A stretch of DNA of 64,000 bases from Marsupella aquatica (GCA_973895155.1 OZ316891.1:248001-312000); one strand, 5' to 3'. Counted from the stretch's first letter, positions 783 to 52,369 are shown. A program made the numbers and translations. The notes: generated by a model from the letters alone, not told the origin.

Positions 783-806
783 TATGATCCTGGATGAGAG
801 GAAGCT

Positions 807-5157: not shown

Positions 5158-7911
5158 ACAAAGAAAATGAGAGAATAGGAGAACATAACCCGACTTAAGT
5201 TAAGTGAATTCGTAACAAACTCTAGAAGATTATCATTTGTGAATGACAAAACGGGTACTAGTCGTAAAATGTAGAAACATAAATGTTGTTTGTCATTTTG
5301 CCAACGTCACTACGTACTGGTAACATCAATAATATAGTTTGAGAAACATGATCAGATATTTACTAGCGCCCGGCGCTACCATAAATAAGTCATGGAATTA
5401 AAACCTAAAAACCAAACTTCATATGCTAGCGCCAGGCGCTATCATTAATCCACTTCCATTTAAAGGTGAAAAACTCTATTAATTTTATTGGAATAACAAA
5501 AATGTCAAAAGACATTGAGTTTGTTTGATATAATTGTTGTTTATAGGAAATATACACGTATCAAATATAGTTAGCGCCCAGCGCTGACATAATTTCATTG
5601 CTGACATCAGTGTTAATGATGTTATTTTAGTGGTTTTTGAATGCTAGCGCTTGGCGCTAGTATCGAAAGGAATGACTTGTATTATCCCAACGGTTATATC
5701 TAACAGTAAAGTGCATGAACGTACTCATTGTTTCACGCTTTTTGCAGTTGACTTCTTTAACAATAGCCTACGGATCATCGCTCCTCCCTTACCCCAGTTA
5801 AAAAGAGGCGTTACATATACTCATTCTAAACAGTATCGGCCACTTGTCCTTGTCATGATTGGTGAGTGAGATCCTTTTCTTCCGCATCGATGTACCTCCC
5901 ATGATGTCAACCGCCCAAGTTTTAAAGGTTTCCTGCTTGTTCTTTTTGTACGGTAATTTGTTCAGAGCGTGAGAATAGACACTGGCTCTATGTCATACAA
6001 GCACCTTCGCAAACTTTGGGGCTCCACGATGCAACCTTCAAGCGCTCCAAGCTCTCCAAGAGGGTATACCACGGTTCCGGAGGGAGATCAGGGTCATTGC
6101 GAGAGTACACAATCTTCATTCTCTGGGGCATTCTATTCGCGTCGTGTTACAAGATCGAGCGGAGCGATTCCTTCATCAAACACAACACTCCCGAGCCAGA
6201 AGCCAAGAAGGGGCAGAATGGAGATTGATGGCATGACCGATTACGCTTTGGGAGAGGGCAATGAGGTAGGACTTGGAATGGATGAAGTCATCTCCAAACA
6301 CATCATGTCGTTTGGGAAAGATTTCCGGGGGAATAAGAAGGAACCTCCACGGATTCCGCTTTGTCGCCTGGTCCACATGGAGGTTGTTTGGACGTTACAG
6401 AAGGAGAGTGCGTCAATTGAGAAATTGAAAGACGCATTCCAAAGTAGTGGATACAATCCCAGGATAGGAATGCGGTTTTTTGTACAGTCGACCAATTCGG
6501 ATGGTTTGGAGCAAATCTGCACTGAAGAGATCAGGGAGATTTGGGATGCAATTTGGGTTGCTGAGAATGAGAAGTTTGAGTTGGAGTGCGAGGCAGATCC
6601 TACCTTTATGATCTTGAAAGACAAAATGTTCTTAGTGTTTGATGGGAATCATCGACTTTACTTGTGGACGATGGTCACAAAGGAAAATCCTGACAACGTC
6701 AAGTATCATCCCAGAGTTCTCTACACAATTTTCAAGGGTGACAAAGCTTCGCAAATTCAGATTGAGGCGGCTATGCACACTGTGAACCAGTACGTTTTTT
6801 GCCCTAGCTTGTAATTAACGATTTCCGCAATACTTGGTTATTACATAAATACAGTGTTTATGGAGTGTTTATAGAATAATATAGTGTTTATAGGCTAATT
6901 GAGTGTTTAAGTTAAGCTAGCGCCCGGCACTAATAATTGAAAACCTGGCCTATTGCAGGTTAGGGCAGGCCGTTGTTGAACCGTCGTGGATCCTTGACGT
7001 AGACAGAATCCGGAGGATTCTTTCTCACGATCTAGAGCACTACAAGTCTATCATTGACAACGCCAATTATGCAAAGTTTGAGTATATCAAACAGAAGACT
7101 CAAAAACATTCTTGGTACACAAGAAAAATGCCTCTGGAAGCTCTAGTCTATATTTTATGCGAAAACAAATTTAAACCTTACACTAACCAGTTCAAGATGG
7201 ACATGGCACTGGCAGCAAGTCAAGGCAATCCTTGGTCCGCTGATGACATCACAAAGCGGCAATCGCTCATGTTGAAAGAGTCTACTAAAGATTGGTCCAC
7301 GAAAACGTCAAAAATCACTCCTCTTCTTAGTCCTGAGTTTGAAGATTTTCTAGGTACCTGTGTAGAGATGTACATTTTGACAGAGAAAAACAAGCAAGAG
7401 AAAAATCCAGATTCGGTTGTTTGCACTATGGACCGTGCCAGACTCTTCACTGCAGTTTCGACGCTTGATCCAAAATTGAGGTGTACATTGCTCGTTGCTC
7501 ACTGTACTCCAGAGTTGAGAAAACAATTCTTCCACCCTTCGAGTGTGAACGATGATCCAGTGAAGCAGTGGTGCCACACATGGCAAACATGGAATACCGT
7601 CAAGGGAATTGCAATTGGGATGCTACACTCGGCAATTTCCGTAGCGATTGAAATGCTACCGGTTGATAGGCTTGCCCAGTCAGGGTGTGACTCGATAGAA
7701 AATCTGATTGAAGTAATTTCAAGTGAATTTCGAAAGTATGGGGATCTTGTGAAGGCAAAGTTCTTCAACACCATGTGGCCATCAAGATACCCTGATAAAG
7801 AGGTATACACCAAGAAAAATCAGAAGAGGGCCAAGAGGTATTTGTATCGTTTCTACATTTGGATGGAAATTCATTCCCCGGATGCTCTTTGGGCGTATCC
7901 AGCCGCATTTA

Positions 7912-10900
7912 TGTGGTGCGTCCCATGGCTCCCTAAACCCAAGAAACCCCCCAGCTCAAGCCGATTCCCGCAGGTTTCGTGCTTGGCGAGGCCGTTTCCG
8001 CGGCTTAGCGGCATGGGACGCTGCTAACCTTCTACTACTACTATTAACATTTTACACACATATACTGGACAGATCCTTCATCGGGTCATGAGATACGTAG
8101 CCGGCCTAATATAGGCCTTCCCCTGTCTTCCCCTGTCTTCCCCTCCGTCTTGTTAGGTATGTTTGGATTCCGCCGCCGGAATGATCCCCAATAGGCTTGG
8201 TTAAGCCGCTAAGACCTCTCTCAGCTCGACACATCCAACTCTCACTCCCCTGCTTACTTTCCTTCCTTCTGTTGATGTGGGCACTCTTCACACAAGTTAA
8301 TGCGACACACAAATAGCAAAATGACTCATTCTGACTGAGTCATACCATGCACTTGCCATACAAACAGTACATCTCATACACAAGTTCTGCGAACTAAGCC
8401 GTGAGGCCAACTCTATTCAGCTCTTAGGCATGAGGAAACATGAATATACACAAGGGTCACTGTATGACTAACCGAGAGCTTCTCGTACTACTTGATCCCA
8501 GCCCGGCTGGTGCAAACTAAAAACTTGCTAAAGAAGAGGCCCTGAGCTCCCCGCTGCCCAGGTACTTATCCTGGTAGTGGATCCGCCATTCTTTGCATCG
8601 TAAGCCTAATCTACTTAACAGTAATCTACTTGCCCGAATCTACCTATGTACAGCAAGGCAGGAGCACAAGTGTTGCTCCTACCAGTGGGACCGCAATCCC
8701 ACTAAGCTAAGTGTCAGGGCCGCTCCTGGTTCTGATCCTAATCCTAAACGTGGAGATCCGTGCCCGCCCTGCCCACTCACGCCTCCTCCCTCCACGTCCG
8801 CCCTCCCTAAAAGGAACGGCGCCCTTGCACCGTCACGACACCGGTGGTGGATCCTCAATGGACGCCCCCAACACTTCCTCCTCAGCCACTGCCGTTGGCC
8901 CGCCTACTGACAGATTACCTGCCCTTGACCGAGTCAACTCTCCATCGGCCTGACTGGGTCCACCTTCGGCTTCAGCCTCGACAACTCCCACGGCTTCGGC
9001 TTCAGCCAACCCCACGGCTTCGGCTTCAGCCAACCCCACGGCTTCGGCCTCCCCTTCCCCTAGGGTAGTTGGATCCTTAGCCGTGACCCTGTCTGGGGTC
9101 GGTGCTGGGTCTACCTCCTTGATCACCACGGCCTGTGAAGTCGTATTACTCCTTGACCCTGAAGGTTTCCGCTTCTTCTTCGTTGGTGGCTCGGCAGCTG
9201 GTCCCTTCCCCTTCCCACTTACCTCCGGCACTGGTGCAGGTGGCGCGGCTTGTCCTTCGGCAATTACCACCCCTGGTAACTGGTTTGTCCCAACAGGAGA
9301 TGGACCTGCTGCAGCTAAGCATTTAAATACTACGGCTTGTTTCTTCAGCCGCTCTGTTTGGTTGTCGGCCCGCCGCTGTAGGTTCTCCATCTTCCTCGTG
9401 ATTTCCTCCAACTCCTCTTGGGTTTCATCCAGGTCCTTACGTGCCCCCTCCAGCTCGTTTTTGGCCTCCTCCTGCTCCCTGTGGGCTTCCTCCAATTCCT
9501 TCTTCAAGGTAGCCTTCTCCTCCTGGGTTGCTCTTAGCTCCTTGTCGAGCTCTGCAATGATGACAGACTCCATCTGGTTCATCTTGGCGTAAGTCTGTTC
9601 GAGCATCTCGTCCTTCTCCCTTAGGTCGGCCTTGAAGCTGGCCGTCAGGGACGCAAGCTCCTGCTGCAGCGCCATAATCCCTTGATAGGATTTCCCTAAC
9701 TCGACCTCCTTCTGCTCAAGGGCTCCGCGGATTTTCTCGAGCTCCCCTTTCAACGCCCATTCCTTTCTTTGGGTCTCCGCCATGGCCCGGCTGTTGGCTG
9801 TTATGTGGGCCTCCTCTGTATTCTTCAGCTCTTGCTTCCACTTTTCCCTTTCTTTGATCGTGTCGGCCAACTCTTCCTGCGTCTGAGTTAGTTTATCCTT
9901 GATATTCTGATTATCAGCCTGCGCGGCGTCCAACTGCCCCTGCATGATGTTCAGCTCATGTCGTTTAATCCGCAGTTCATCTTGGGCTTTCTTGGCCGCC
10001 CTTAGATCTTCAATCTCGGCTCCCATCCTCCTAAGCCGCCGAATGACCTCGTCCTTCTTGCTTCTCTCTAAAGCCACCGCTTCTTCTAATTGGTGCTTCT
10101 CCAACTGCTCCCTATGGAAAAAGGGTCCTACCTCCAACTCCTCTCCAAAGATGCCGAGCGCAAGTTCCCCACACATCTCACCATACTCCATGGCTCTATT
10201 CTTAGCGTAGGTGGAGTAAGTAGAAGTGATCGGCATCGCCCATCGTGGCCTCTGCTCCCAAGCCGTCCTGCGGATCTCTTCAATCGTGGCTAGAGGTTTG
10301 CTTCCTTTTTCGGCTAGCCGCCTGATGTCCTCCGGCCAATCTCCTCCTGGTAAATCCTTTTCCTTAGCCAGGGCGGCCTCTTCCTCCTGCTTGATTCGCT
10401 CCTGAAATTCCTGCACCGTCTGTTTTATGCCGTCGAAGCTCGGGGGAGCAACATCTGGTGGGGGAGACTCAGGGCTACTCTGCTGGTTGGGGTCCCCTCG
10501 CACTACCCTTGGAAGTGTGGGGACAAACCGGCCACAGGTCCTTACTCCTGGAACGTGATGGTCCGACCCATAGCCGGAATTATCATGGCTGCAGTCCTCC
10601 ACTGCCTCCTCTACCTCTTGGATTTCCGGCTTCTCCCTCTCCTCTTCCTCGGTAGGAGCTTCAGGCAATTCTGCCTCAGATTCGGAGCTTGAGGTTCCCA
10701 CGTACATTCGAACACCTGGCTTGGATTCCGGCCTGATTCTCTCCTTGTCTCCAGCAAAGGGGTTTTCTCTTGTGAGCCGGTGTAGGCCTACCTCTGTAGT
10801 AGTGTCCTGCATTGTTGCCGTTGCCGTTGTTGTTGCCGATGACGATTTCTTTTCTTTCTCCAGTAGTTTCAGCAAACTCTGCATGCCTGGTTGCTGCATC

Positions 10901-12559
10901 GGCAAGTCTTCCTTCCTGGGCCTAAACACCTGCTCGATCGTAGGACTAACAGGTGGTTGAGGCTTCTCAGCCAACGGCCTCGGCGTTGGAGCTTCCTCGG
11001 GTGCCCTTACCTGCAGGGGAAGTACCGGGGCAAAAGTCTGACCTCTGGCATACCGGCACAACAGCGGCATGTGATAGCCAAGCCACGACACGCTCCCCAT
11101 GCCGATTACCTGCTGCTCCTCCTTTAAGATCTTCTTCAATTGGTTGAGGAGGTACCCGTTGTAGTCCCGGCTTGGGTCTGGCCTTTCTGCCAGATAGACC
11201 TGTGCCTTGCCGATCTCTGCCCTCGGCAAGTTACAATGCATGGTCACCCGCAAGAAGTCGATCATCTCTCCTATGTGCGGGTTGGTGCAGGTGTTCTGGA
11301 AGAAGCCATTCTTCGTTGATGGCCCGGGGAACGACCGGAACTCCTTGTCAGGCAAGGTCTTCCTGGTATCAACTTTGGTCTTATTGCCCATCGGCAAGCC
11401 AAACACTTCGGCAATTACCTTGGGAGTAAGATAGAAATCCTTCCCATATATCCTCGTGCAATTGGTCTCGGGTTCCCATGACCCCACGAATTCTAATAGG
11501 TCTGACTCCGGTACCTCCGGCTTCAGCCATGGTAATCTTACAAAGGCCTCCAAGCCGGATCCGGCCATGAAGCCTTGGTACTTCTTGGTCTGCATGGCCG
11601 TAAAGCATGCATCCTCCTCCCGTGCAAAATGTAGTTGCACCTCCACCGGTAGGGTTGCCGCCCAGCCCTTCCAGGTGTCATCCCTGGTTGGAATGGCCTT
11701 GATGGGATCGACCTCCTCCTCTTCGGCTTCTCCCTGCCTCCTGCTCTGCTGCTCGGCTGGCTTCTTTGGTGCCGCCGACCTCGTTCTTTTTGCCGGGGTG
11801 GCTTCATCGTTGACGGCTCCCTTCCTCTTCATCTCTACTGCCGTGGAGGTTTCTCCTAGCACCGTTGCCTGGGTCCACCTTTCCGTGCTACCCTTTAATT
11901 CCCAGTGGATGTCGTTGCAGTTCTTGATGGCCTCTCGGATGCCGACGACGCTGTCTTTGCAAAACAGAAGATCGTCGAGTTGATTGGAAGTAGGCGTCCA
12001 CAGGAACTCGTCCTTGATGAGTTCGCCTCCTAAGAAAGCCGTCTTGTGCAGCTCCCACAATCGAGCGAGCTCCTGCCGTTCTCGAGCTGCCCTTTCTGAC
12101 TCCTCGTCCTCGTAAGTCTTGATGTACTCAGTTGCCCGTTCGAACAGGCATCCCCAGAAATGTGCCGCTTGATTGACGTTGCTCATACCCTCCTTAGGTT
12201 GATCGTCGGTATCTACTCTCTCCCCGAGTGCTTGCCTAAGCAGCTGACAGTAGTTGGCCTCCCGTAGTCGTCTGCCTAGTTCGTGCTCGCAAATGAGCCA
12301 CCATCTCCTACAAGCGCTCCTTACCCCTCTCCTCTGCCGGTCCTTCTTCCCGTTGATCCTTCCTAGCCGCCGACGCTTAACGCGCCCTAACCCTAATCGG
12401 GTTTTCACCCTTAGCCTTACCTCCGGCCTCTGCCCGGGTTCCATGGTTGCCCCTAATTGTTTATATTTTCCTTGTTTTGTCACTATACTAAGGTGTTCCT
12501 AGGGTGCCTTCCTGCTTTACCCACTTAACCGGCCGAGTGATTCCTATCTAGGCATCACA
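7912..12559 (-). mobile_element. Solo LTR (4648 bp) of the giant-LTR Ty3/gypsy family A
   Basis: Reverse complement of the LTRs at 29810-34433 and 40658-45329, with TGTGATG...CACCACA ends. Flanks ATTTA/ATTTC form a 5-bp TSD with one mismatch. Removing it restores the host reading frame (PAAF-HKWIIVKE). Confidence 0.95.
8833..12483 (-). CDS. Intact LTR-encoded ~1200-aa protein (plant-mobile-domain-like region + long coiled coil)
   Basis: Uninterrupted 1216-codon ORF (GTG start; first ATG 12 codons in) lying wholly inside the solo LTR. EFVGSWEPETNCTRIYGKDFYLTPKVIAEVFGLP resembles the PMD core, and an E/K/L-rich heptad region follows. Confidence 0.85.
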   Translation of the reverse strand: MTKQGKYKQLGATMEPGQRPEVRLRVKTRLGLGRVKRRRLGRINGKKDRQRRGVRSACRRWWLICEHELGRRLREANYCQLLRQALGERVDTDDQPKEGMSNVNQAAHFWGCLFERATEYIKTYEDEESERAARERQELARLWELHKTAFLGGELIKDEFLWTPTSNQLDDLLFCKDSVVGIREAIKNCNDIHWELKGSTERWTQATVLGETSTAVEMKRKGAVNDEATPAKRTRSAAPKKPAEQQSRRQGEAEEEEVDPIKAIPTRDDTWKGWAATLPVEVQLHFAREEDACFTAMQTKKYQGFMAGSGLEAFVRLPWLKPEVPESDLLEFVGSWEPETNCTRIYGKDFYLTPKVIAEVFGLPMGNKTKVDTRKTLPDKEFRSFPGPSTKNGFFQNTCTNPHIGEMIDFLRVTMHCNLPRAEIGKAQVYLAERPDPSRDYNGYLLNQLKKILKEEQQVIGMGSVSWLGYHMPLLCRYARGQTFAPVLPLQVRAPEEAPTPRPLAEKPQPPVSPTIEQVFRPRKEDLPMQQPGMQSLLKLLEKEKKSSSATTTATATMQDTTTEVGLHRLTRENPFAGDKERIRPESKPGVRMYVGTSSSESEAELPEAPTEEEEREKPEIQEVEEAVEDCSHDNSGYGSDHHVPGVRTCGRFVPTLPRVVRGDPNQQSSPESPPPDVAPPSFDGIKQTVQEFQERIKQEEEAALAKEKDLPGGDWPEDIRRLAEKGSKPLATIEEIRRTAWEQRPRWAMPITSTYSTYAKNRAMEYGEMCGELALGIFGEELEVGPFFHREQLEKHQLEEAVALERSKKDEVIRRLRRMGAEIEDLRAAKKAQDELRIKRHELNIMQGQLDAAQADNQNIKDKLTQTQEELADTIKEREKWKQELKNTEEAHITANSRAMAETQRKEWALKGELEKIRGALEQKEVELGKSYQGIMALQQELASLTASFKADLREKDEMLEQTYAKMNQMESVIIAELDKELRATQEEKATLKKELEEAHREQEEAKNELEGARKDLDETQEELEEITRKMENLQRRADNQTERLKKQAVVFKCLAAAGPSPVGTNQLPGVVIAEGQAAPPAPVPEVSGKGKGPAAEPPTKKKRKPSGSRSNTTSQAVVIKEVDPAPTPDRVTAKDPTTLGEGEAEAVGLAEAEAVGLAEAEAVGVVEAEAEGGPSQADGELTRSRAGNLSVGGPTAVAEEEVLGASIEDPPPVS

Positions 12560-15500
12560 ATTTCACAAGTGGATTATTGTAAAGGAGGGAGATCTTGTTT
12601 GTGACTTATACTCAATGTATCCTGCCAAGGGTAAACTACCCCCAAGGGAAATGTCCAAGTGGGAAAGAATTCACTGCCCATGGTACCTTGACACAGACAA
12701 GTGGGATTCACCCTTTGATGAAGTGGAGAAGGATTGGTTTCTGAAACTTGCAAAGTCGCAGATCCTTCCCAACATTGTTTCTAAGATGAAGCAAGGTCTC
12801 CTTAGCGACATCGATAAATCTTCTACGGAGTTAGAGACAATCTGTGAGACAGCAGTTGTCCATGTAGATAGGAGCCGCAAGCCACGAGGGAAAGTTAAAA
12901 TAGACACTGCAGTGCCAAGTGCCTCCACGCGATCCGGAAAGAAACATAAGTTTTCAATATTTTTTTCAAATGTTTGCTAGTGCCCGGCGCTGCCATTCTT
13001 GTGTTTCAATCTTCATCAGTGTTTGCTTGAAGGCCCTAATCCCACATTCTTTGCAATATGTTCATAGGTCAAAAGAAGTCAGATGCAGATGGCACAGATG
13101 ATACGAATGTTACCCCAGAAGCTTCAAAAGCAAATACTGGCGCTTTGCCAGATCCACTTACACCAGTTAATTCTGGGAAATCGATTGTCCCAGTCGATGC
13201 GACCAGTACAAAAAAGAAAAGCAAAAGGACTCGAGATGCTGGACAATCAGAACGACATTCTCAGGCTGTCACTGGGCTCCAACGTGATGTTGGGGATTTT
13301 AAAGCCAAGTTGTCCCGTCATTGTTTCGTTGAGACCAATGTCAGTGAACTTGTGGACAGTGTGTTTAATAAGGAGGAGAAGCCGGAATGGGTAAATAATG
13401 CCAAAAAGTGGGGGAAAGACCTGATCAAATCTGGATGCCGGCTGAAAGGAGTGGTGAGGGGTGGGAAGCAAAGACCTTTTGGTGTTGACGCTGGTTTTAT
13501 TTACTTGCCAACTGGGCTAAAACCGACTTTGCTTGACAGAAAGGTCCCTAAATGGAACGTCCCCGACTGTACCCTACTCCGATCCTTTTTCCAGGCAATG
13601 GATCCTTTTTTGTTGGATGACGGAATTATTGCGATACTCCATACGGGGGAGTATGATCAAATTTTGCAGGTCATCTCCGCTTGTCAAGAGTCCAAGAAAT
13701 TCCAGTGTCTATGTACACATAATGTCGTCATGGGGTTCCCAATGTACAAAGCAAAGTCTGATTTACGGGTAATTTCGTTGATCCTTTTGCTAGCGCCAGG
13801 CGCTATTCATATTATCTATTACTTTCTTTTTTTTATTTGACCTTATTTCAGGTAAACTATTCAACATGATTTTGTGGATTATTTGCTAGCGCCCGACGCT
13901 ATTGTAATCTGAGGGTCCTTCCTCTATTTTGTTCCCTTTTCAGGTATTCACTTTACGTTTGGATGTATTTTCGCGGATATCATCCAAGGTGAAAGTCCCA
14001 AAAGATCCTAAGTTCAAACCCCTTTCAAAAACAGAGGATCCTTCCATTACAAATCTGATTGGACTTCCCTTTGCGAAGGTTGATACAACTCCAGAGCTTG
14101 AATTTGCCGGGAATGCCAGACTACATCCAGGATTCATGCAGTCTGTGTTGGAACTAATTACGTGTCCAGGAGATATTGTTCTGGATTGGGCTGTAGGTTC
14201 GGGGAGTACATTTGTTGCAGGTGATAATTGTGGTCGATTTGTAATTGGACTCGAGAATAGGAAGGAGTTTGTTGAAACCGCTTCTAAGGTATTTCTGGAT
14301 CTTCTTACTCCAACAGAGTCTGAGCCCGAAGCCCCTCCAAAGTCTACAATTTCAAAACAAAAGATAGACAAACTGAAGTCTGTCTTAAATTTTGATTCTG
14401 AAGATGAGGATGAGACAGAAGAGGGGGAAGAAGAGGAGGATCCTAACATTCCCAAAGTGTCTCTTACCAGAGAAGATCCAGGATCTAATGGAGGGAGTGA
14501 CAGCGGAGACTCTTCTGAGTAAGAAGCTTCCGAGTAAGCTCTTAAGTAAACCCGGTGTTTTAGTAGATTACCTTATTCTCTCTTCGATTTCTCATTTTTC
14601 TTTTCATTTTTTAAAATATTCTTGGCGTTGACATAAAACCCTAAACTTCTCGTCCTCAGGTCAGACTGGAATCTTCGCCGGTGTTTCCAACTCAGAAGGA
14701 AAGTAGCTAGGCAATATATTAAAACTCCCGAGAAACCATTTGTACTACCTTCCTATGATGAGAATATTGCTAGACGAGCTGATAGTGTGCGGACCCTCCA
14801 TTCGGAGCATAAAGGTTTGAGATTAAGGAGAGGGTCTGATAGAAAATTTATTCGTAGTTGATATGTTGATGATATGGCCGAGAAAGTTTTTTTAGACATG
14901 GAGGCAGAATCCACCGACAGGTCCGAGTCAAGTGAATCAGAATTCTCAGATTGATTTGCCTTGAAAGGGTATTTTGGGATTTATATACACTGAAGTTATA
15001 CTAGCACCGGGCGCTACTATTATGTAACCTGGATACATTGTTTATTCAAATGTATTCGATACATTGGATACTTTTGTGGTGTATCTTTATTCTATTATGT
15101 TCTCTATATTGCAATGTTTTTATGGTAGCGCGTGTTGCTACCATAATTTAATGTCCATGATCATATACCCGCATATTTTTCAATTTTGTTTTTGTCCATT
15201 TTTGAGGATCAGTTTACTTCCTAAGACTAGACATTCCGAGTGGTCAAAAACAAGTGACCTGAAACTCAGTATATGTTGGGTCTATTTCTCAATTGCATTA
15301 TGCTAGCGCTTGGCGCTACTAAAACATATTTTGGAAACATTGTCCGTTAAGTGTTTTCCACATGTCAGCGACAACTATTTTGTTTGTTCCTTCTGTTAGT
15401 AACGTAAACATTTTAATATTGTAATATTAGCGTCGGGCGCTACTATAACTGTACGACGGTCAATGCAATCTTACAATGATTCTCCCGTACGCTCTGGATG

Positions 15501-15985
15501 ATGTCAGTGGAAGTTTCGAGGTAATCTTTTGTCCCGTTCTAAGTTCGTTCGGCCTGTCGCGACTCGCATGTGAGCTGGTACCGGATTTTTCTCATCCAAA
15601 CGGTCACTTCATGTCACAACGGGACTTTGGATGCCTGAAACATTTCGGGATTCCAATACTAGTTTTGGTCGACCGTTTCTGAATGGAGACGAAGGTAAAC
15701 GTTGCAACTATCATGTGAGAAGGGAGTGACCGTTCCGTGTTGAACCGGTAGTTTGGGGACTTTGAGGATGCAACCTCCACCCCCTCCCTCATTACGATGG
15801 GCGTATCCAGGTCGAACGGGTTTGCTTATAATACTTGGGAGATTACATCCCGACTGCCTAGTTTTGCTACTGCTTTAGTGGTTTATGTTCCCACTTTCGA
15901 TAATCTTCGAGCTCTTTCGCTGACCGGGGTTGTATTGACAACTATATCTTTGAATTTGCCATCCGCTGCCTAGAGGTTTCATACC

Positions 15986-24342: not shown

Positions 24343-27300
24343 TGTGATGCCTAGCCAGGAATCACTGGGCTAGTTTAAGGGGAAAAGGGAAGTGTACCCT
24401 AGAAACACCTTAGTATAGTTACATAAATAAGTAAAATATAAACAATTAAGGGTGACTATGGAACCCAAGCCGAGGCCGGAAGTAAGGACGCCAGGGGAGA
24501 GAACACGATTAGGGTTAGGGCACGCTAAGTGTCGGTGGCTAGGGGTAACCAACGGGAGGGAGAACCAGAGGAGGAGAAGGGTAAGTACCGCTCGCGAGGA
24601 ATAGTAGCTCATTTGCAAGCACGAACTGAGCAGGCGACTACGGGCGGCCAACTTCTGTCAACTGCTTAGGCAAGGGCTCAGGGTGGGAACAAATACCGAC
24701 TATCAACTCGAGAAGGGTATGAGCAACGTCAATCAAGCGGCACATTTTTGGGGATGCCTGTTCGAACGGGCAATTGAGTACATTGGGACTTACGAGGACG
24801 AAGAATCGGAGAGAGCAGCTCGAGAACAGCAGGAGCTCGCCCGATTGTGGGAGCTGCAAAAAGCTGCCTTCTTAGGAGGAGAACTCATCAAGGCTGAATT
24901 CCTGTGGATGCCTATTGGCAACGAGCTAGACGACCTGCTGTTTTGCGAAGACAAAGTCGTCGGCATCCGAGAAGCCATCAAACGCTGCAACGACATACAC
25001 TAGGAGTTGAAGGGTAGCACGGAGGGGTGGACAAAGGCAACCATGCTAGGAGAGACATCCACGGCAGCCGAGATGAAGAGGAAGGGGAACAACAACGAAG
25101 AGGCCACCCCGGCAAAAAGAACGAGGTCGGCGGCACCAAAGAAGCCAACAGAACAGCAGAGCAGGAGGCAGAGAGAAGCCGAGGAGGAGGAGGTCGACCC
25201 CATCAATGCCATTCCAACAAAAGATGACACTTGGAAAGGCTGGGCGGCGATTCTCCCCGAGGAAGTGTAATTATACTTTGCACGGGAGGAGGATGCATGC
25301 TTTACGCCTATGCAGACTCGGAAATACCAGGGCTTCATGGCCGGATCCGGCTTGGAAGCCTTCGTAAGGTTACCGTGGCTGAAGCCGAAGGTGCCGGATT
25401 CAGACTTACTAGAATTTGTGGGATCGTGGGAGTCCGAGACCAATTCCACAAGGGTGTATGGGAAGGATTTCTATCTCACTCCCCAGGTGATTGCCGAAGT
25501 GTTTGGCTTGCCGAAGGGCAATAAGACCAAGGTAGATACCAGGAAGACTTTGCCAGACAAGGAGTTCCGGTCGTTTCCCGGGCCTTCAACAAAGAATGGC
25601 TTCTTCCGAAACACCTGCACCAACCCGCATATAGGAGAGATGATCGAGTTCTTGCGGGTGACCATGCATTGCAACTGGCCGAGACCAGAGATTGGCAAGG
25701 CACAGGTCTATCTGGCAGAGAGGCCAGACCCAAGCCGGGACTACAATGGTTACCTCCTCACTCAACTAAAGAAGATCTTGAAGGAGGAACAGCTGGTGAT
25801 CGGCAAGGGAAGCGTGTCCCGGCTTGGCTATCACGTACCGCTACTATGCCGGTATGCCCGAAGTAAGACCTTTGCCCCGGTACTTCCCCTACAAGCAAGG
25901 GCACTAGAGGAGGTTCCGGAACAGAGGCCGACAATGGAGAAACCCAACCCGCCCGACAGTCCTACAATCGAGCAGGTGTTTAGGCCAAGGACGGAGGACT
26001 TGCCGATGCAGCAACCAGGCATGCAGAATCTGCTGAAATTGCTGGAGAAGGAAAAGAGAACGGCAACGGCAACGACAACGGCACCAATGCAGGACACTGC
26101 TCCAGAGGTAGGCCTAAGCCGGCTTACAAGGGAAAACCCCTTTATTGGAGTCAAGGAGAGAGGGAGGCCGGAACACGAGCCGGGAGTCCGGATGTATGTA
26201 GGAGCCTCAAGTCCCGAAGCCGAGGAAAAGCAGGTCGTAGCTCCCGGCCACGACAAGGAGAACAAGAGATCAACACAGAAGCCGGAGGAGGAACCAAGAC
26301 CGGTGAGAGGTGAAGCCGTGTTCACGACAAAACCAGGAGAACAGCGGGAGAAGCCGGTAGTCCAAGCCGAGGAGGAGGCGGTAGAGGACTACAGCAATGA
26401 TGACTCCGGCTACGGGTCGGATCATCATGTTCCAGGAGTAAGGACCTGTGGCCGGTTCATCCCCACGCTCCCAAGAGTAGTTCGAGGAGACCCAAGCCAG
26501 TAGAGCAGCCCCGAGTCTCCCCCACCAGATGTCGCTCCCCCGAGCTTTGACGGCATAAAACAGACGGCGCAGGAATTTCAGGAGCAAATCAGGGAGGAAG
26601 AGGAGGCACCCCTGGCTAGGGAAAAGGATTTACCAGGAGGAGAATGGCCAGAGGACATCAGGCGGCTTGCAGAAAAACGAAGCAACCCTCTTGCCACCGT
26701 AGAAGAAATCCGCAAGACGGCTTGGGAGTAGAGGCCGCAGTGGTTGATGCCGATGACTTCTAGTTACTCCACCTATGCTAAGGATAGAGCCATGGAGTAC
26801 GGGGAAATGTGTGGAGAGCTGGCGCTCAACATCTTTGGGGAGGAGTTGGAGCAAGGACCCTTTTTCAGAGGGAGATGTTGGAGAAGCGCCAATTAGAAGA
26901 AGCGGTGGCTTTGGAAAGAAGCAAGAAGGACAAGGTCATCCGTCGGCTTAGGGCAAGGGAAGCCAAAATCAAAGACCTGAGGGCGGCCAAGAAAGCCCAA
27001 GATGAGCTGCGGATTAAGCGGCATGAGCTAAATATCATGCAGGGCCAATTGGATACCGCACAGTCTGATAATCGGATTATCAAGAATAAACTGACTTGAA
27101 CCCAAGGAGAGTTGGCCGATGCGATCAAGGAGCGAGAGAAGTGGAAGCGAGAACTGAGGGATGCAGAGGAGGCCCACACAACAACCAACAACCGGGCCAT
27201 GGCGGAGACCCAGAGGAAGGAAAGGGCATTGAAGGGGGAGCTCGAGGTTATCCGCGGAGCCCTTGAGAAGAAGGAGGCCGAGTTAGGGAAATCCTATCAA

Positions 27301-27645
27301 AGGATTATTGCGCTGCAGCAGGAGCTTGCATCCCTGACGGCCAGCTTCAAAGCCGACCTGCGTGAGAAGGACAATATGCTCGATCAGACTTACGCCAAGA
27401 TGAACCAGATGGAGTCTGTCATCATTGCAGAGCTCGACAAGGAGTTAAGAGCGACCCGGGAGGAGAGAGCTGCGTTTAAAAAGGAATTGGAGGAAGCCCA
27501 GAAGGAGCTGGAGGAGGCGCGCAAGGACCTGGACGAAGTGCAGGAATAGTTGGAGGAATGCACGCGGAAGCTAGAGAACTTACAACGACGAGCCGACAAC
27601 CAAACGGAGCAGCTGAAGAAACAAGCCGCAGTATTTAAGTGCTTG
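24343..27645 (+). mobile_element. 5' part of a subfamily-B giant LTR with a decayed LTR ORF, cut by a nested family-A LTR
   Basis: Starts TGTGATGCCTAGCCAGG and is colinear with the LTR at 51487. ORF pieces at 24683-27549 carry stops. Confidence 0.9.
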
Positions 27646-29809
27646 TGTGATGCCTAGACAGGAATCACTCGGCCAGTTAAGTGGGTAAAGCAGGAAGGCA
27701 CCCTAGGAACACCTTAGTATAGGGACAAAACAAGGAAAATATAAACAATTAGGGGCAACCATGGAACCCGGGCCGAGGCCGGAGGTAAGAACGCTGAGGG
27801 TGAAAACTCGATTAGGGTTAGGGCACGTTAAGCGTCGGCGGCTAGGAAGGATCAACGGGAAGAAGGACTGGTAGAGGAGAGGGGTAAGGAGCGCTTGCAG
27901 GAGATGGTGGCTCATTTGCGAGCACGAACTAGGCAGACGACTACGGGAGGCCAACTACTGTCAGCTGCTTAGGCAAGCACTTGGGGAGAGAGTAGATACC
28001 GACGATCGACCTAAGGAGGGTATGAGCAACGTCAATCAAGCGGCACATTTCTGGGGATGCCTGTTCGAACGGGCAACTGAGTACATCAAGACTTACGAGG
28101 ACGAGGAATCAGAAAGGGCAGCTCGCTCGATTATGGGAGCTACAGAAGACGGCTTTCTTAGGAGGCGAACTCATCAAGGACGAGTTCCTGTGGACGCCTA
28201 CTTCCAATCAACTCGACGATCTTCTGTTTTGCAAAGACAGCGTCGTCGGCATCCGAGAGGCCATCAAGAACTGCAACGACATACACTGGGAATTAAAGGG
28301 TAGCACGGAAAGGTGGACCCAAGCAACGGTGCTAGGAGAAACCTCCACGGCAGCAGAGATGAAGAGGAAGGGAGCCGTCAACGATGAAGCCACCCCGACA
28401 AAAAGAACGAGGTCGGCGGCACCAAAGAAGCCAGCCGAGCAGCAGAGCAGGAGGCAGGGAGAAGCCAAAGAGGAGGAGGTCGATCCCATCAAGGCCATTC
28501 CAACCAGGGATGACACCTGGAAGGGCTGGGCGGCAACCCTACCGGTGGAGGTGCAACTACATTTTGCACGGGAGGAGGATGCATGCTTTACGGCCATGCA
28601 GACCAAGAAGTACCAAGGCTTCATGGCCGGATCCGGCTTAGAGGCCTTTGTAAGATTACCATGGCTGAAGCCGGAGGTACCGGAGTCAGACCTATTAGAA
28701 TTCGTGGGGTCATGGGAACCCGAGACCAATTGCACGAGGATATATGGGAAGGATTTCTATCTTACTCCCAAAGTAATTGCCGAAGTGTTTGGCTTGCCGA
28801 TAGGCAATAAGACCAAAGTTGATACCAGGAAGACCTTGCCTGACAAGGAGTTCCGGTCGTTCCCTGGGCCATCAACGAAGAATGGCTTCTTCCGGAACAC
28901 CTGCACCAACCCGCACATAGGAGAGATGATCGACTTCTTGCGGGTGACCATGCATTGTAACTTGCCGAGGGCAGAGATCGGCAAGGCACAGGTCTATCTG
29001 GCAGAGAGGCCAGACCCAAGCCGGGACTACAACGGGTACCTCCTCAACCAATTGAAGAAGATCTTAAAGGAGGAGCAGCAGGTAATCGGCATGGGGAGCG
29101 TGTCGCGGCTTGGCTATCACATGCCGCTGTTGTGCCGGTATGCCAGAGGTCAGACTTTTGCCCCAGTACTTCCCCTGTAGGTAAGGGCACCCAAGGAAGC
29201 TCCAACGCCGAGGCCGTTGGCTAAGAAGCCTCAACCACCTGTTAGCCCTACGATCGAGCAGGTGTTTAGGCCCAGGAAGGAGGACTTGCCGATGCAGCAA
29301 CCAGGCATGCAGAGTCTGCTGAAACTACTGGAGAAAGAAAAGAGATCGGCATCGGCAACGACCACGGCAACGGCAACAATGCAGGACACTACTACAGAGG
29401 TAGGCCTACACCGGCTCACAAGAGAAAACCCCTTTGCTGGAGACAAGGAGAGAATCAGGCCGGAATCCAAGCCAGGTGTTCGAATGTATGTGGGAGTCTC
29501 AAGCTTCGAATCTGAGGCAGAATTGCCTGAAGCTCCTACCGACAAAGAGGAGAGGGAGAAGCCGGACGTCCAAGAAGTAGAGGAGGCAGTGGAGGACTGC
29601 AGCCATGATAATTCTGGCTATGGGTCGGACCATCACGTTCCAAGAGTAAGGACCTGTGGCCGGTTTGTCCCCACACTTCCAAGGGTAGTGCGAGGGGACC
29701 CCAACCAGCAGAGTAGCCCTGAGTCTCCCCCACCAGATGTTGCTCCCCCGAGCTTTGACGGCATAAAACAGACGGCGCAGGAATTTCAGGAGCGAATCAG
29801 GTAGGAAGA
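27646..29809 (+). mobile_element. 5' part of a family-A giant LTR, cut by the next nested LTR
   Basis: Starts TGTGATGCCTAGACAGG at 27646. It is colinear with the first ~2.15 kb of the LTR, and its ORF is broken by a small deletion and stops. Confidence 0.9.
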
Positions 29810-32800
29810 TGTGATGCCTAGACAGGAATCACTCGGCCGGTTAAGTGGGTAAAGCAGGAAGGCACCCTAGGAACACCTTAGTATAGTGACAAAACAAGGA
29901 AAATATAAACAATTAGGGGCAACAATGGAACCCGGGCAGAGGCCGGAGGTAAGGCTGAGGGTGAAAACCCGATTAGGGTTAGGGCGCGTTAAGCGTCGGC
30001 GGCTAGGAAGGATCAACGGGAAGAAGGACCGGCAGAGGAGAGGGGTAAGGAGCGCTTGCAGGAGATGGTGGCTCATTTGCGAGCACGAACTAGGCAGACG
30101 ACTACGGGAGGCCAACTACTGTCAGCTGCTTAGGCAAGCACTCGGGGAGAGAATTGATACCGACGATCGACCTAAGGAGGGTATGAGCAACGTCAATCAA
30201 GCGGCACATTTCTGGGGATGCCTGTTCGAACGGGCAACTGAGTACATCAAGACTTACGAGGACGAGGAGTCAGAAAGGGCAGCTCGAGAACGGCAGGAGC
30301 TCGCTCGATTGTGGGAGCTGCACAAGACGGCTTTCTTAGGAGGCGAACTCATCAAGGACGAGTTCCTGTGGACGCCTACTTCCAATCAACTCGACGATCT
30401 TCTGTTTTGCAAAGACAGCGTCGTCGGCATCCGAGAGGCCATCAAGAACTGCAACGACATACACTGGGAATTAAAGGGTAGCACGGAAAGGTGGACCCAG
30501 GCAACGGTGCTAGGAGAAACCTCCACGGCAGCAGAGATGAAGAGGAAGGGGGCCGTCAACGATGAAGCCACCCCGGCAAAAAGAACGAGGTCGGCGGCAC
30601 CAAAGAGGCCAGCCGAGCAGCAGAGCAGGAGGCAGGGAGAAGCCGAAGAGGAGGAGGTCGATCCCATCAAGGCCATTCCAACCAGGGATGACACCTGGAA
30701 GGGCTGGGCGGCAACCCTACCGGTGGAGGTGCAACTACATTTTGCACGGGAGGAGGATGCATGCTTTACGGCCATGCAGACCAAGAAGTACCAAGGCTTC
30801 ATGGCCGGATCCGGCTTGGAGGCCTTTGTAAGATTACCATGGCTGAAGCCGGAGGTACCGGAGTCAGACCTATTAGAATTCGTGGGGTCATGGGAACCCG
30901 AGACCAATTGCACGAGGATATATGGGAAGGATTTCTATCTTACTCCCAAGGTAATTGCCGAAGTGTTTGGCTTGCCGATGGGCAATAAGACCAAAGTTGA
31001 TACCAGGAAGACCTTGCCTGACAAGGAGTTCCGGTCATTCCCCGGGTCATCAACGAAGAATGGCTTCTTCCGGAACACCTGCACCAACCCGCACATAGGA
31101 GAGATGATCGACTTCTTGCGGGTGACCATGCATTGTAACTTGCCGAGGGCAGAGATCGGCAAGGCACAGGTCTATCTGGCAGAAAGGCCAGACCCAAGCC
31201 GGGACTACAACGGGTACCTCCTCAACCAATTGAAGAAGATCTTAAAGGAGGAGCAGTAGGTAATCGGCATGGGGAGCGTGTCGCGGCTTGGCTATCACAT
31301 GCCGCTGTTGTGCCGGTATGCCAGAGGTCAGACTTTTGCCCCGGTACTTCCCCTGCAGGTAAGGGCACCCGAGGAAGCTCCAACACCGAGGCCGTTGGCT
31401 GAGAAGCCTCAACCACCTGTTAGTCCTACGATCGAGCAGGTGTTTAGGCCCAGGAAGGAAGACTTGCCGATGCAGCAACCAGGCATGCAGAGTCTGCTGA
31501 AACTACTGGAGAAAGAAAAGAAATCGGCATTGGCAACAACAACGGCAACGGCAACAATGCAGGACACTACTACAGAGGTAGGCCTACACCGGCTCACAAG
31601 AGAAAACCCCTTTGCTGGAGACAAGGAGAGAATCAGGCCGGAATCCAAGCCAGGTGTTCGAATGTACGTGGGAACCTCAAGCTCCGAATCTGAGGCAGAA
31701 TTGCCTGAAGCTCCTACCGAGGAAGAGGAGAGGGAGAAGCCGGAAATCCAAGAGGTAGAGGAGGCAGTGGAGGACTGCAGCCATGATAATTCCGGCTATG
31801 GGTCGGACCATCACGTTCCAGGAGTAAGGACCTGTGGCCGGTTTGTCCCCACACTTCCAAGGGTAGTGCGAGGGGACCCCAACCAGCAGAGTAGCCCTGA
31901 GTCTCCCCCACCAGATGTTGCTCCCCCGAGCTTCGACGGCATAAAACAGACGGTGCAGGAATTTCAGGAGCGAATCAAGCAGGAGGAAGAGGCCGCCCTG
32001 GCTAAGGAAAAGGATTTACCAGGAGGAGATTGGCCGGAGGACATCAGGCGGCTAGCCAAAAAAGGAAGCAAACCTCTAGCCACGATTGAAGAGATCCGCA
32101 GGACGGCTTGGGAGCAGAGGCCACGATGGGCGATGCCGATCACTTCTACTTACTCCACCTACGCTAAGAATAGAGCCATGGAGTATGGTGAGATGTGTGG
32201 GGAACTTGCGCTCGGCATCTTTGGAGAGGAGTTGGAGGTAGGACCCTTTTTCCATAGGGAGCAGTTGGAGAAGCACCAATTAGAAGAAGCGGTGGCTTTA
32301 GAGAGAAGCAAGAAGGACGAGGTCATTCGGCGACTTAGGAGGATGGGAGCCGAGATTGAAGATCTAAGGGCGGCCAAGAAAGCCCAAGATGAACTGCGGA
32401 TTAAACGACATGAGCTGAACATCATGCAGGGGCAGTTGGACGCCGCGCAGGCTGATAATCAGAATATCAAGGATAAACTGACTCAGACGCAGGAAGAGTT
32501 GGCCGACACGATCAAAGAAAGGGAAAAGTGGAAGCAAGAGCTGAAGAATACAGAGGAGGCCCACATAACAGCCAACAGCCGGGCCATGGCGGAGACCCAA
32601 AGAAAGGAATGGGCGTTGAAAGGGGAGCTCGAGAAAATCCGCGGAGCCCTTGAGCAGAAGGAGGTTGAGTTAGGGAAATCCTATCAAGGGATTATGGCGC
32701 TGCAGCAGGAGCTTGCGTCCCTGACGGCCAGCTTCAAGGCCGACCTAAGGGAGAAGGACGAGATGCTCGAACAGACTTACGCCAAGATGAACCAGATGGA

Positions 32801-34433
32801 GTCTGTCATCATTGCAGAGCTCGACAAGGAGCTAAGAGCAACCCAGGAGGAGAAGGCTACCTTGAAGAAGGAATTGGAGGAAGCCCACAGGGAGCAGGAG
32901 GAGGCCAAAAACGAGCTGGAGGGGGCACGTAAGGACCTGGATGAAACCCAAGAGGAGTTGGAGGAAATCACGAGGAAGATGGAGAACCTACAGCGGCGGG
33001 CCGACAACCAAACAGAGCGGCTGAAGAAACAAGCCGCAGTATTTAAATGCTTAGCTGCAGCAGGTCCATCTCCTGTTGGGACAAACCAGTTACCAGGGGT
33101 GGTAATTGCCGAAGGACAAGCCGCGCCACCTGCACCAGTGCCGGAGGTAAGTGGGAAGGGGAAGGGACCAGCTGCCGAGCCACCAACGAAGAAGAAGCGG
33201 AAACCTTCAGGGTCAAGGAGTAATACGACTTCACAGGTCGTGGTGATCAAGGAGGTAGACCCAGCACCGACCCCAGACAGGGTCACGGCTAAGGATCCAA
33301 CTACCCTAGGGGAAGGGGAGGCCGAAGCCGTGGGGTTGGCTGAAGCCGAAGCCGTGGGAGTTGTCGAGGCTGAAGCCGAAGGTGGACCCAGTCAGGCCGA
33401 TGGAGAGTTGACTCGGTCAAGGGCAGGTAATCTGTCAGTAGGCGGGCCAACGGCAGTGGCTGAGGAGGAAGTGTTGGGGGCATCCATTGAGGATCCACCA
33501 CCGGTGTCGTGACGGTGCAAGGGCGCCGTTCCTTTTAGGGAGGGCGGACGTGGAGGGAGGAGGCGTGAGTGGGCAGGGCGGGCACGGATCTCCACGTTTA
33601 GGATTAGGATCAGAACCAGGAGCGGCCCTGACACTTAGCTTAGTGGGATTGCGGTCCCACTGGTAGGAGCAACACTTGTGCTCCTGCCTTGCTGTACATA
33701 GGTAGATTTGGGCAAGTAGATTACTGTTAAGTAGATTAGGCTTACGATGCAAAGAATGGCGGATCCACTACCAGGATAAGTACCTGGGCAGCGGGGAGCT
33801 CAGGGCCTCTTCTTTAGCAAGTTTTTAGTTTGCACCAGCCGGGCTGGGATCAAGTAGTACGAGAAGCTCTCGGTTAGTCATACAGTGACCCTTGTGTATA
33901 TTCATGTTTCCTCATGCCTAAGAGCTGAATAGAGTTGGCCTCACGGCTTAGTTCGCAGAACTTGTGTATGAGATGTACTGTTTGTATGGCAAGTGCATGG
34001 TATGACTCAGTCAGAATGAGTCATTTTGCTATTTGTGTGTCGCATTAACTTGTGTGAAGAGTGCCCACATCAACAGAAGGAAGGAAAGTAAGCAGGGGAG
34101 TGAGAGTTGGATGTGTCGAGCTGAGAGAGGTCTTAGCGGCTTAACCAAGCCTATTGGGGATCATTCCGGCGGCGGAATCCAAACATACCTAACAAGACGG
34201 AGGGGAAGACAGGGGAAGACAGGGGAAGGCCTATATTAGGCCGGCTACGTATCTCATGACCCGATGAAGGATCTGTCCAGTATATGTGTGTAAAATGTTA
34301 ATAGTAGTAGTAGAAGGTTAGCAGCGTCCCATGCCGCTAAGCCGCGGAAACGGCCTCGCCAAGCACGAAACCTGCGGGAATCGGCTTGAGCTGGGGGGTT
34401 TCTTGGGTTTAGGGAGCCATGGGACGCACCACA
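29810..34433 (+). repeat. 5' LTR (4624 bp)
   Basis: TG...CA ends, direct repeat of 40658-45329, followed by the PBS. Confidence 0.95.
29886..33512 (+). pseudogene. LTR-encoded ORF, 5' LTR copy with one premature stop
   Basis: Same protein as 8833-12483. CAG>TAG at 31257-31259 splits it into 457-aa and 747-aa ORFs in one frame. Confidence 0.9.
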
Positions 34434-34437
34434 TTTT

Positions 34438-34455
34438 TGGCGCTAGATGGAGGGG
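34438..34455 (+). promoter_or_regulatory. Primer-binding site, likely tRNA-Asn
   Basis: TGGCGCTAGATGGAGGGG lies 4 nt after the LTR and is identical at 56661. It resembles the complement of the plant tRNA-Asn 3' end (...CCCCTCCTTCTAGCGCCA, from memory). Confidence 0.75.
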
Positions 34456-34502
34456 GCATTTCTTAAGCCGTGAGATATGAAGTTAGAACGGAAGCGTAGG
34501 TA

Positions 34503-51474: not shown

Positions 51475-52369
51475 AACGGAGGAGAATGTGATGCCTAGCC
51501 AGGAATCACTGGGCTAGTTTAAGGGGAAAAGGGAAGTGTACCCTAGAAACACCTTAGTATAGTTACATAAATAAGGAAAATATAAACAATTAAGGGTGAC
51601 TATGGAACCCGAGCCGAGGCCGGAAGTAAGGACGCTAGGGGAGAGAACACGATTAGGGTTAGGGCACGCTAAGTGCCGGCGGCTAGGGGTAACCAACGGG
51701 AGGGAGAACCAGAGGAGGAGAGGGGTAAGGACCGCTTGCGAGGAATAGTGGCTCATTTGCAAGCACAAACTGAGCAGGTGACTATGGGCGGCCAACTACT
51801 GTCAACTGCTTAGGCAAGCGCTCAGGGTGGGAACAGATACCGACTATCAACTCGAGAAGGGTATGAGCAACGCTAATCAAGCGGCACATTTTTGGGGATG
51901 CCTGTTCGAACGGGCAACTGAGTACATTGGGACTTACGAGGATGAAGAATCGGAGAGAGTAGCTCGAGAACGGCAGGAGCTCGCCCGATTGTGGGAGCTG
52001 CAGAAAGCTGCCTTCTTAGGAGGAGAACTCATCAAGGCTGAATTCCTGTGGACGCCTACTGGCAACGAGCTAGACGACCTGCTGTTTTGCAAAGACAGAG
52101 TCGTCGGTATCCGAGAAGCCATCAAACGCTGCAACGCCATACACTGGGAGTTGAAGGGTAGCACGGAGGGGTGGACAAAGGCAACCATGCTAGGAGAGAC
52201 ATCCACGGCAGCCGAGATGAAGAGGAAGGGGAACAACAACGAAGAGGCCACCCCGGCAAAAAGAACGAGGTCGGCGGCACCAAAGAAGCCAACAGAACAG
52301 CAGAGCAGGAGGCAGAGAGAAGCCGAGGAGGAGGAGGTCGACCCCATCAACGCCATTCCAACAAGAGAT

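Follow-up and report, generated by a model that had tools for sequence, protein, structure and literature searches.

Can the long terminal repeat (LTR) of a retrotransposon carry a gene of its own, and what would such a gene do for the element? The question is raised by a 64,000-nt stretch of DNA from Marsupella aquatica (GCA_973895155.1 OZ316891.1:248001-312000), here called the window, in whose coordinates all positions are given. On its minus strand, 7912-12559 is a 4,648-bp repeat with TG...CA ends, which a first-pass annotation took for an LTR with a gene encoded inside it. We find that this repeat is a genuine LTR, that of a Ty3/gypsy element akin to Athila, that the reading frame within it is under purifying selection, and that the core domain of its protein is predicted to share, at a remote level, the fold of VANC21 (DUF1985), an anti-silencing factor.

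Self-comparison of the window matches the repeat to both ends of an element at 29810-45329, with 99.4-99.7% identity over aligned columns, and to parts of four further places. In this full element, direct repeats with TG...CA ends surround gag-pol, whose domains follow the order reverse transcriptase, RNase H, integrase (RT-RH-INT), and the two LTRs differ at 28 of 4,624 sites. A primer-binding site (PBS), which we take to be a tRNA-Asn site (34438-34455), and a polypurine tract (PPT) abut the repeats, and pol terminates within the 3' LTR (see the table), which leaves no internal room for an extra gene. At 7912-12559, a single repeat stands between the two copies of a target-site duplication (TSD), with no PBS or PPT, and the two parts of the interrupted host reading frame line up in phase as expected for a 5-bp duplication. 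It is this combination of PBS and PPT placement, pol stop, 5-bp duplication and host-frame register that identifies the repeat as an LTR and 7912-12559 as a solo LTR. The gene lies between LTR termini, as had been proposed, and the true LTR is not merely the terminal ~0.9 kb, a possibility raised at the same time: PPT, PBS and TSD frame all 4.6 kb, and relatives have the same layout. Of the TSD, to which the first-pass annotation appealed together with PPT/PBS placement, the solo LTR has a copy with one mismatch in 5 bp, and the full element, whose right flank is rearranged, has none.

That absence, together with the nest of truncated copies around the full element, would suit a different explanation, in which the repeat is no LTR and is instead a separate mobile unit or local duplication bracketing gag-pol. 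Yet PPT and PBS adjoin the repeat in subfamily A, to which the solo LTR belongs, and the PBS does so in subfamily B; pol stops inside the repeat; the motif preceding the PPT marks, at the same place, short ordinary LTRs in sister elements; two relatives from metagenomes (L001 and L002) have matching inverted termini; and the solo copy has its TSD. We consider this explanation highly improbable.

Is the frame within the LTR a gene? In the solo LTR, a single stop-free frame spans 8833-12498, and its open reading frame (ORF) occupies LTR nt 116-3727, leaving a 921-nt tail. The first-pass annotation had the ORF start ~76 bp from the TG terminus; the frame in fact opens at nt 62, with its first ATG at nt 116. 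The ~1200-aa length given there agrees with the 1,203 aa read from this ATG, although constraint starts near Met87. Because codons 1-70 are unconstrained, codon 48 is a stop in both B copies, and all six LTR copies retain Met87, the product is likely a protein of 1,117 aa starting at Met87 rather than one of 1,203 aa. The six copies, which had been described as six long LTRs with the ORF, do all carry it, four at full length and two truncated (at LTR nt 2178 and 3243). The frame is unbroken in one of the six, the solo LTR; the 5' and 3' LTRs of the full element (the 29810 and 40658 copies) have single stops, at codons 445 and 133, just as reported, and the other three copies have 3-8 stops.

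The ORF is under purifying selection. From pairwise counts between real copies, A against each of two B copies, the ratio of nonsynonymous to synonymous change (dN/dS) was 0.228 (95% bootstrap 0.18-0.28; 1,021 codons) and, with the other B copy, 0.243 (bootstrap 0.20-0.30; 1,174 codons), that is, 0.23-0.24 and not near 1; for comparison, gag gave 0.19 and pol 0.24 (235 codons). As controls, the two other plus frames gave 0.98-1.62. The opposite frame that shares third positions gave 0.30-0.32, but it contains 23-24 stops. Constraint is strongest at aa 241-480 (0.10), amounts to 0.18-0.28 at aa 71-240 and 481-1060, and is lax at the ends (0.8 for the last 140 aa, 0.95-1.36 for codons 1-70). Within the ORF, indels of at least 3 nt in both B copies are all multiples of three except one compensated 7+2 pair, in agreement with the earlier remark that the frame is common to subfamily B and that its larger indels are mostly in-frame; the B copy at 24343 also has a 1-nt deletion in the ORF. 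A and B differ by 5-8% in the non-coding tail but by ~43% at the silent sites of the ORF and by 21-24% across gag-pol, and 7912-8832 is 92-95% identical to 55740-56656. This low divergence could reflect either strong constraint on the tail or exchange or recombination between the subfamilies at the ORF end.

The location of the gene has consequences for its dosage and persistence. Because reverse transcription copies U3 to both ends, a gene moved there would be doubled, and a gene in the LTR is kept after LTR-LTR recombination, which deletes an internal gene. That the gene is doubled per element and retained in solo form, as previously suggested, is borne out by the 5' and 3' LTR copies and by the intact ORF in a single solo LTR. 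In two runs, the LTR had about 4 times (4.0 and 3.8) the summed contig depth of the internal region, a ratio that is not copy number and gives only a hint of an excess of solo LTRs; depth was similar over the LTR ORF and the LTR tail. MMTV sag and HIV nef also have coding sequence in or overlapping U3, carried wholly or partly by both LTRs; these genes are retroviral, far shorter, and encode unrelated proteins that act on host immunity.

Among plant elements, comparable extra genes lie in internal regions. Grande gene23, Retand TRP28 and Retrosat2 ORF0 are likewise conserved extra genes of unassigned function present in most copies (PMC7264820; PMC11963269 and PMC3485330, in part), and in the available text of these sources they often have a coiled-coil (SMC-like) part and a proposed nuclear role; they differ from the window ORF in lying internally, many of them antisense, and in being lost on solo LTR formation. 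No extra ORF located in an LTR is described in the available parts of PMC7264820, PMC6317226 or the papers on Retand, Retrosat2, sunflower and Apopellia, and our literature search, which left most subscription papers outside, turned up no plant LTR reported to contain an ORF. Reviews and classification schemes place plant extra ORFs internally and treat solo LTRs as non-coding leftovers, and annotation tools assume short LTRs, with an ATHILAfinder default of 1-2 kb (bioRxiv 2026.03.20.713144, in part).

The lineage features given by REXdb for Athila and Phygy (PMC6317226, supplementary file 3, in part) help to place the element. It resembles Athila in its RT-RH-INT order, with neither a second RNase H nor a chromodomain found by Pfam scan of pol, in having a sense accessory ORF after pol and in Atlas neighbours belonging to PF20167 and PF03078, and may resemble it in its 5-bp TSD (a single case, with a mismatch) and in a PBS that starts TGGCGC and diverges thereafter. 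Relatives have an Athila-type Asp/Asn PBS. It differs from Athila in that the ORF lies inside the LTR and not between pol and PPT, in its LTR length (4.6 kb versus a typical 1-2 kb), in its RT, which is ~48% identical to angiosperm Athila-like sequences and falls in a separate bryophyte clade, and in the lack of a Pfam match; the extra internal ORF downstream of pol that characterizes Athila is absent here and present in the sister element L004. Phygy elements are expected to have a 4-bp NCGN TSD and no extra ORFs, and the window element departs from both, as none of six 5' flanks read ends in NCGN. Tat, Ogre and Retand elements have an additional RNase H, for which the Pfam scan of the window pol found no second family. 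The element is thus an Athila relative that we file as neither Athila, Phygy nor Tat.

Is the LTR location peculiar to this genome? A metagenome scan with the pol alignment found 17 loci, of which 8 were used for layout and tree and 7 for motif tests, the remaining 9 comprising short pol fragments and one distant hit; the same alignment found nothing in viral contigs. Metagenome contigs of repeats may be collapsed. The closest RT match was a protein at 73%, followed by Calypogeia (69-70%), Riccia (58-60%) and angiosperm Athila-like sequences (~48%), a ranking that by itself makes a liverwort host likely. In the window, L001, L002, L004, L005, L007 and L010, a conserved motif followed by PPT and TGTG marks the LTR start. 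In L001, L002, L005 and L007 this motif comes directly after pol, and 510-770 nt into the LTR a sense ORF starts. The end of the LTR is visible in L001 and L002, together with a PBS and inverted termini that match, but not in L005 and L007. The circularly permuted contig L004 instead reads pol, ORF, motif-PPT, a 991-bp LTR, PBS, gag. In L010 a 1,086-bp LTR comes after the end of the ORF, and in L006, a close relative of L010, the domain follows pol. The domain of the window ORF is homologous to that of the relatives' ORFs by comparison of profiles with no shared rows (HHalign 97.7%, E 1.9e-12), with shuffled or reversed controls reaching at best 6 bits versus 13-31.

In a pol tree (22 rows, quick search, with only approximate likelihood-ratio support, SH-aLRT), the five elements with a gene in the LTR form a clade with Calypogeia and one row of unseen layout (SH-aLRT 98), and L003, L004, L006 and L010 form the sister group (SH-aLRT 100). 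By RT, the bryophyte clade stands apart from the angiosperm Athila-like rows, in a tree without labelled REXdb references or a deeper outgroup. Since the angiosperm Athila ORF is internal and downstream of pol, the LTR position of the gene is likely derived. Growth of the LTR by a simple shift to an upstream PPT is one possible route that gained no support: the LTR-gene elements share their pre-PPT motif with the downstream PPT of the internal type, and the purine tract after the ORF and the post-pol tract of the sister clade show no significant likeness (16 and 11 of 200 shuffles reach it). L004 has a second purine tract right after pol (3740-3775; also in L003 and L006) besides its LTR-adjacent PPT. 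We also discarded the idea that two near-identical pairs of Calypogeia proteins represent the two LTRs of one element, as they lie ten accession numbers apart and in opposite order.

Where within the LTR the gene lies bears on how it would be expressed. In L001, L004 and L010, TATA-like boxes lie 98-152 nt upstream of the LTR end, which suggests a short R-U5 and an ORF located in U3. The ORF could alternatively lie in R/U5, with a TATA box at LTR nt 95 as the sole promoter and the ORF as the first cistron of the genomic RNA, comparable to the 5' extra ORFs of Ogre and Retrosat2. In its favour, the A LTR has a single perfect TATAAA, the one at nt 95, which subfamily B retains, and B lacks the 3' candidate; set beside the boxes of the relatives, this arrangement is in our judgement improbable.

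What, then, does the gene encode? The protein comprises an N-terminal conserved region, a core domain (aa 249-473) and a coiled-coil-like region, with one KKKRK patch. An env-like role is unlikely, as no transmembrane segment is present: the highest 19-residue hydropathy is 1.05, within an Ala/Val/Gly repeat. The coiled coil of ~300 aa described earlier is present as a coiled-coil-like stretch of ~250 aa judged from composition only (aa 800-1045: no proline, charged, heptad-patterned), and is predicted to serve self-assembly. At gathering score, Pfam gave no hits to PMD (PF10536), PF20167 or ATHILA (PF03078) among the window ORF, 22 homologues and seven relatives' domains, nor any DUF1985 hit for the LTR ORF. 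The core domain had no match in word-indexed protein searches, a metagenome scan of its own, PDB sequences (searched with the domain profile) or a viral structure library, and an Rfam scan found no match. A HMMER scan with aa 1-498 returned 23 hits at E <=0.001, the best at 40% over aa 247-471, and the four named representatives come from the liverwort Calypogeia fissa.

Structure prediction points further. An AlphaFold2 model of aa 235-490 (model 1; predicted local distance difference test score, pLDDT, 78.7) placed DNA-bound VANC21 in the top row of a Foldseek search (E 0.89, template modelling score (TM) 0.46; other listed rows <=0.16), and among 48,161 solved chains VANC21 alone reached a Z of at least 2 (Z 8.8, root-mean-square deviation (rmsd) 4.2, 210 aligned). 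Model 2, built from the relatives (pLDDT 92.3), again matched VANC21 alone (Z 6.9, rmsd 4.0, 197 aligned). Neighbours in the Atlas, a language-model resource, came from PF20167 and ATHILA clusters (0.87-0.88 and 0.90-0.91, the latter with 25 of 30 being PF20167) and serve as leads only. Published work reports structural homology between VANC and MAIN/PMD and predicts, for VANC as for the Athila domain, oligomerisation via coiled coils (PMC13547354; bioRxiv 10.1101/2024.09.27.615353; both in part). By way of this published homology, the LTR protein likely has the same broad fold as the PMD proteins, such that the PMD-like segment of the first-pass annotation, which has no Pfam match to PMD, finds a counterpart at the level of predicted fold.

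VANC21 is encoded by VANDAL21, a Mutator-like DNA transposon (PDB 9LNK/9LNJ), and the available text of the sources on it (PMC5735166; PMC13547354) shows several likenesses to the window protein: the predicted core fold, a coiled-coil region, the status of a transposon-encoded accessory protein, and a short element-enriched word that differs between families. It differs in that the host element here is a Ty3/gypsy retrotransposon and not VANDAL/MuDR, in sequence (6-9% identity, no DUF1985 hit), and in the word, which is here shorter and spread through coding sequence, not through the non-coding tandem arrays reported for VANC21. PMD proteins (Ogre PMD-A, MAIN/MAIL1/MAIL2) are the other comparison. 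PMD-A is also retrotransposon-encoded (PMC5418596; bioRxiv 2024.09.27.615353; both in part); the window ORF has no PF10536 hit, the available text describes PMD from angiosperms, and the Ogre ORFs are internal.

As for the word itself, AAGCCG occurs 30 times in A against 7.5 expected and 30 times in B against 6.3. We tested the broader [AT]GCCG (WGCCG), chosen after looking, against 300 synonymous-codon shuffles, and observed 44 versus 16.8 in the ORF without its 24-bp repeat, 19 versus 9.4 in gag and 20 versus 10.6 in pol, counts reached by 0, 0 and 1 of the 300 shuffles, respectively, with occurrences on both strands and in several frames. The top z was 6.3-7.6 against a null maximum of 4.1-4.7. 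WGCCG was not enriched in ten neighbouring transposon-like ORFs of the window (8/7.5, 9/9.5), nor in any relative; all four relatives with a gene in the LTR are enriched for a different word, CCGGA/ATCCGGAA (z 8-16), and none of three internal-type relatives is enriched for either WGCCG or CCGGA. A has 86 WGCCG sites and B 88, with 62 common to both. Mutation or methylation-context bias may underlie such enrichment, and the relatives come from other hosts.

We propose that an Athila-type accessory gene has moved from the interval between pol and PPT into U3 and encodes a VANC-like, family-specific anti-silencing factor, a proposal that we regard as having an even chance of being right. Once relocated, the gene would have its own mRNA, started by the TATA box at LTR nt 95, and the genomic RNA would start from another promoter close to the 3' end of the LTR. 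The protein would enter the nucleus through its KKKRK patch and bind, as an oligomer, to WGCCG sites along the element; family copies so bound would lose repressive marks, countering silencing, and the factor could act in trans from 5', 3' and solo LTRs alike. A stronger version, in which the LTR is a self-contained anti-silencing module of promoter, VANC-fold reader and family address word, each protein being paired to its own word, is tentative and on balance doubtful.

A number of points weigh against the anti-silencing proposal. Identity to VANC21 is 6-9%, the rmsd is ~4 A, the Z values are middling, the Foldseek E value for model 1 is 0.89, and for model 2 VANC21 is absent from the best 50 Foldseek matches listed; the alignments behind the two models are not independent, sharing one member (the ORF at 47974). 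There is no Pfam- or profile-level link to PMD, PF20167 or ATHILA, our own profiles do not match the three PF20167-bearing proteins among 120 scanned, and Atlas shared-feature counts are 138-163, below the 170 that true family members typically have. A shared fold need not fix function in any case, and MAIN/MAIL proteins promote the silencing of transposable elements (PMC5418596, in part). As for the word, it is 5-6 bp long, reaches its highest density in coding sequence, at 14 per kb in the ORF versus 5-8 elsewhere, is unevenly spaced (coefficient of variation 1.3), and has no enriched counterpart in the LTR non-coding parts alone, whereas VANC21 targets are 9-mers in non-coding tandem repeats (PMC5735166, in part); conservation of silent sites between A and B is only slightly higher within the word (p 0.045-0.28 in six overlapping tests), and internal-type relatives carry the same domain with no such word in their coding sequence. 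Regarding the move, the TATA-like box that A itself has 202 nt upstream of the LTR end is not found in B. Over the domain, BLASTP does not match the window ORF to the relatives' ORFs, whose LTR-type and internal-type members are closer to each other (27-33%) than to the window ORF, such that a single move is not proven.

Some of these points would be expected if a same-fold LTR accessory gene had a role other than anti-silencing, for example in tethering the integration complex or cDNA to chromatin, in scaffolding particles or RNA, or in dampening the activity of the family, with the CCG word having another cause such as family-specific escape from methylation-driven mutation. The remoteness of the VANC21 match, the part that host PMD proteins play in silencing, the weak silent-site conservation of the word and its absence from internal-type relatives that have the domain all fit such a role, as does the available account of the Athila ORF, to which no function is assigned (bioRxiv 2026.03.20.713144). 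The lack of a chromodomain in pol by Pfam also makes a targeting helper plausible. Yet the sole structural match is a DNA-bound anti-silencing factor, and the word changes from one family to the next, with neighbouring transposon ORFs in the same genome lacking it. We give this alternative a substantial chance, though one short of even.

If the stronger version of the proposal, with the LTR as a self-contained module, holds, every solo LTR left by purging recombination would act as a small gene sustaining the activity of the remaining family in trans, an LTR retrotransposon would have a sequence-specific anti-silencing system, and the VANC/PMD fold would have been in retrotransposons long before angiosperms. 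Whatever its function, a selected long gene that is part of the LTR across a clade means that the commonest remnant of a family can keep coding capacity. A VANC21-like fold together with a family word offers a concrete and cheap test for the function of Athila-type accessory ORFs, and the sister clade with its internal gene provides a natural comparison of two layouts. A bryophyte retrotransposon with a VANC21-like fold also bears on whether PMD originated in Gypsy elements or in their hosts (PMC5418596, in part).

Table. Features of the solo LTR, the full element and other copies in the window.
Feature	Position	Strand	Basis
Solo LTR, subfamily A, 4,648 bp, TG...CA	7912..12559	-	self-comparison, ends
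TSD, left copy, 5 bp	7907..7911	.	interrupted host frame in register
TSD, right copy, 4/5 bases matching	12560..12564	.	host frame in register
LTR ORF from first ATG, 1,203 aa; unbroken in this copy only	8833..12444	-	translation
Likely true coding part from Met87, 1,117 aa	8833..12186	-	constraint, stops, Met87 conservation
N-terminal conserved region, ~aa 91-210	11815..12174	-	phmmer hits P0005, P0006, P0008; aa 71-240 dN/dS 0.20-0.26
Core domain aa 249-473, predicted VANC21-like fold	11026..11700	-	models; dN/dS 0.10
Coiled-coil-like region, ~aa 800-1045	9310..10047	-	composition, heptad pattern; dN/dS 0.18-0.22
24-bp in-frame tandem repeat, one-unit variation among A copies, several AAGCCG words	8967..9051	-	alignment
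TATAAA box, LTR nt 95, 279 nt upstream of Met87, kept in A and B	12460..12465	-	candidate ORF promoter
Non-coding 921-nt LTR tail; genomic promoter, R and U5 likely here (inferred)	7912..8832	-	layout
Truncated subfamily B LTR (to nt 3243), 8 stops, one frameshift	24343..27645	+	alignment
Truncated A-type LTR (to nt 2178), 17-bp deletion, 3 ORF stops	27646..29809	+	alignment
5' LTR of full element; ORF with one stop, codon 445	29810..34433	+	alignment of copies
PBS, 4 nt past LTR; identical in subfamily B	34438..34455	+	read from sequence
gag with zinc knuckle and protease-like segment (by eye)	34500..37496	+	Pfam, sequence
pol (RT-RH-INT), -1 frame; stop 12 nt inside 3' LTR	37403..40669	+	Pfam, sequence
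Conserved pre-PPT motif and PPT, directly before 3' LTR	40622..40657	+	motif common to relatives
3' LTR; ORF with one stop, codon 133	40658..45329	+	alignment of copies
Full-length subfamily B 5' LTR, 4 stops, 0.47-kb insertion	51487..56656	+	self-comparison, alignment

The surroundings of these features deserve brief mention. The ORF into which the solo LTR is inserted belongs to another transposon-like, repeated unit (5957-24300 and 1-780), and three nearby ORFs have weak matches to N6_N4_Mtase (PF01555; 13908-14522, 18368-18973 and 21333-22553). To the right of the full element, 45330-46056 consists of an inverted B-type LTR start followed by the isolated last 570 bp of an LTR. The subfamily B 5' LTR at 51487..56656 is followed by a PBS and gag-pol, which extends to 60288, and is itself interrupted at 52370-52844 by a 0.47-kb insertion with TG...CA ends, a 5-bp duplication and an 18-bp tandem array, which looks like the solo LTR of another family. 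In both subfamilies, gag-protease and pol overlap by 94 nt (37403-37496) in the -1 frame, with no obvious standard slippery heptamer; in the closest relative, P0042, gag and RT are in a single frame, and in L002 one stop separates them.

A second, distant member of the core-domain family lies at 47974-49869 on the minus strand (~565 aa from its Met), outside the LTRs of this family; it resembles the ORFs of the relatives (25-37%) more than the LTR ORF, and has short ACCGGTTC-type repeats just upstream (49837-49912). Among the relatives, the non-coding 3' part of the LTR contains diverged direct repeats, 150-220 bp long, in L001 (180-677) and L005 (5440-5843), and in L005 a perfect 9-bp hairpin at the LTR start (2526-2547) repeats the LTR terminus. 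Finally, short interstitial arrays of the telomere-type repeat TTTAGGG occur at 3594-3623 and 62382-62475, the second with a strand switch.

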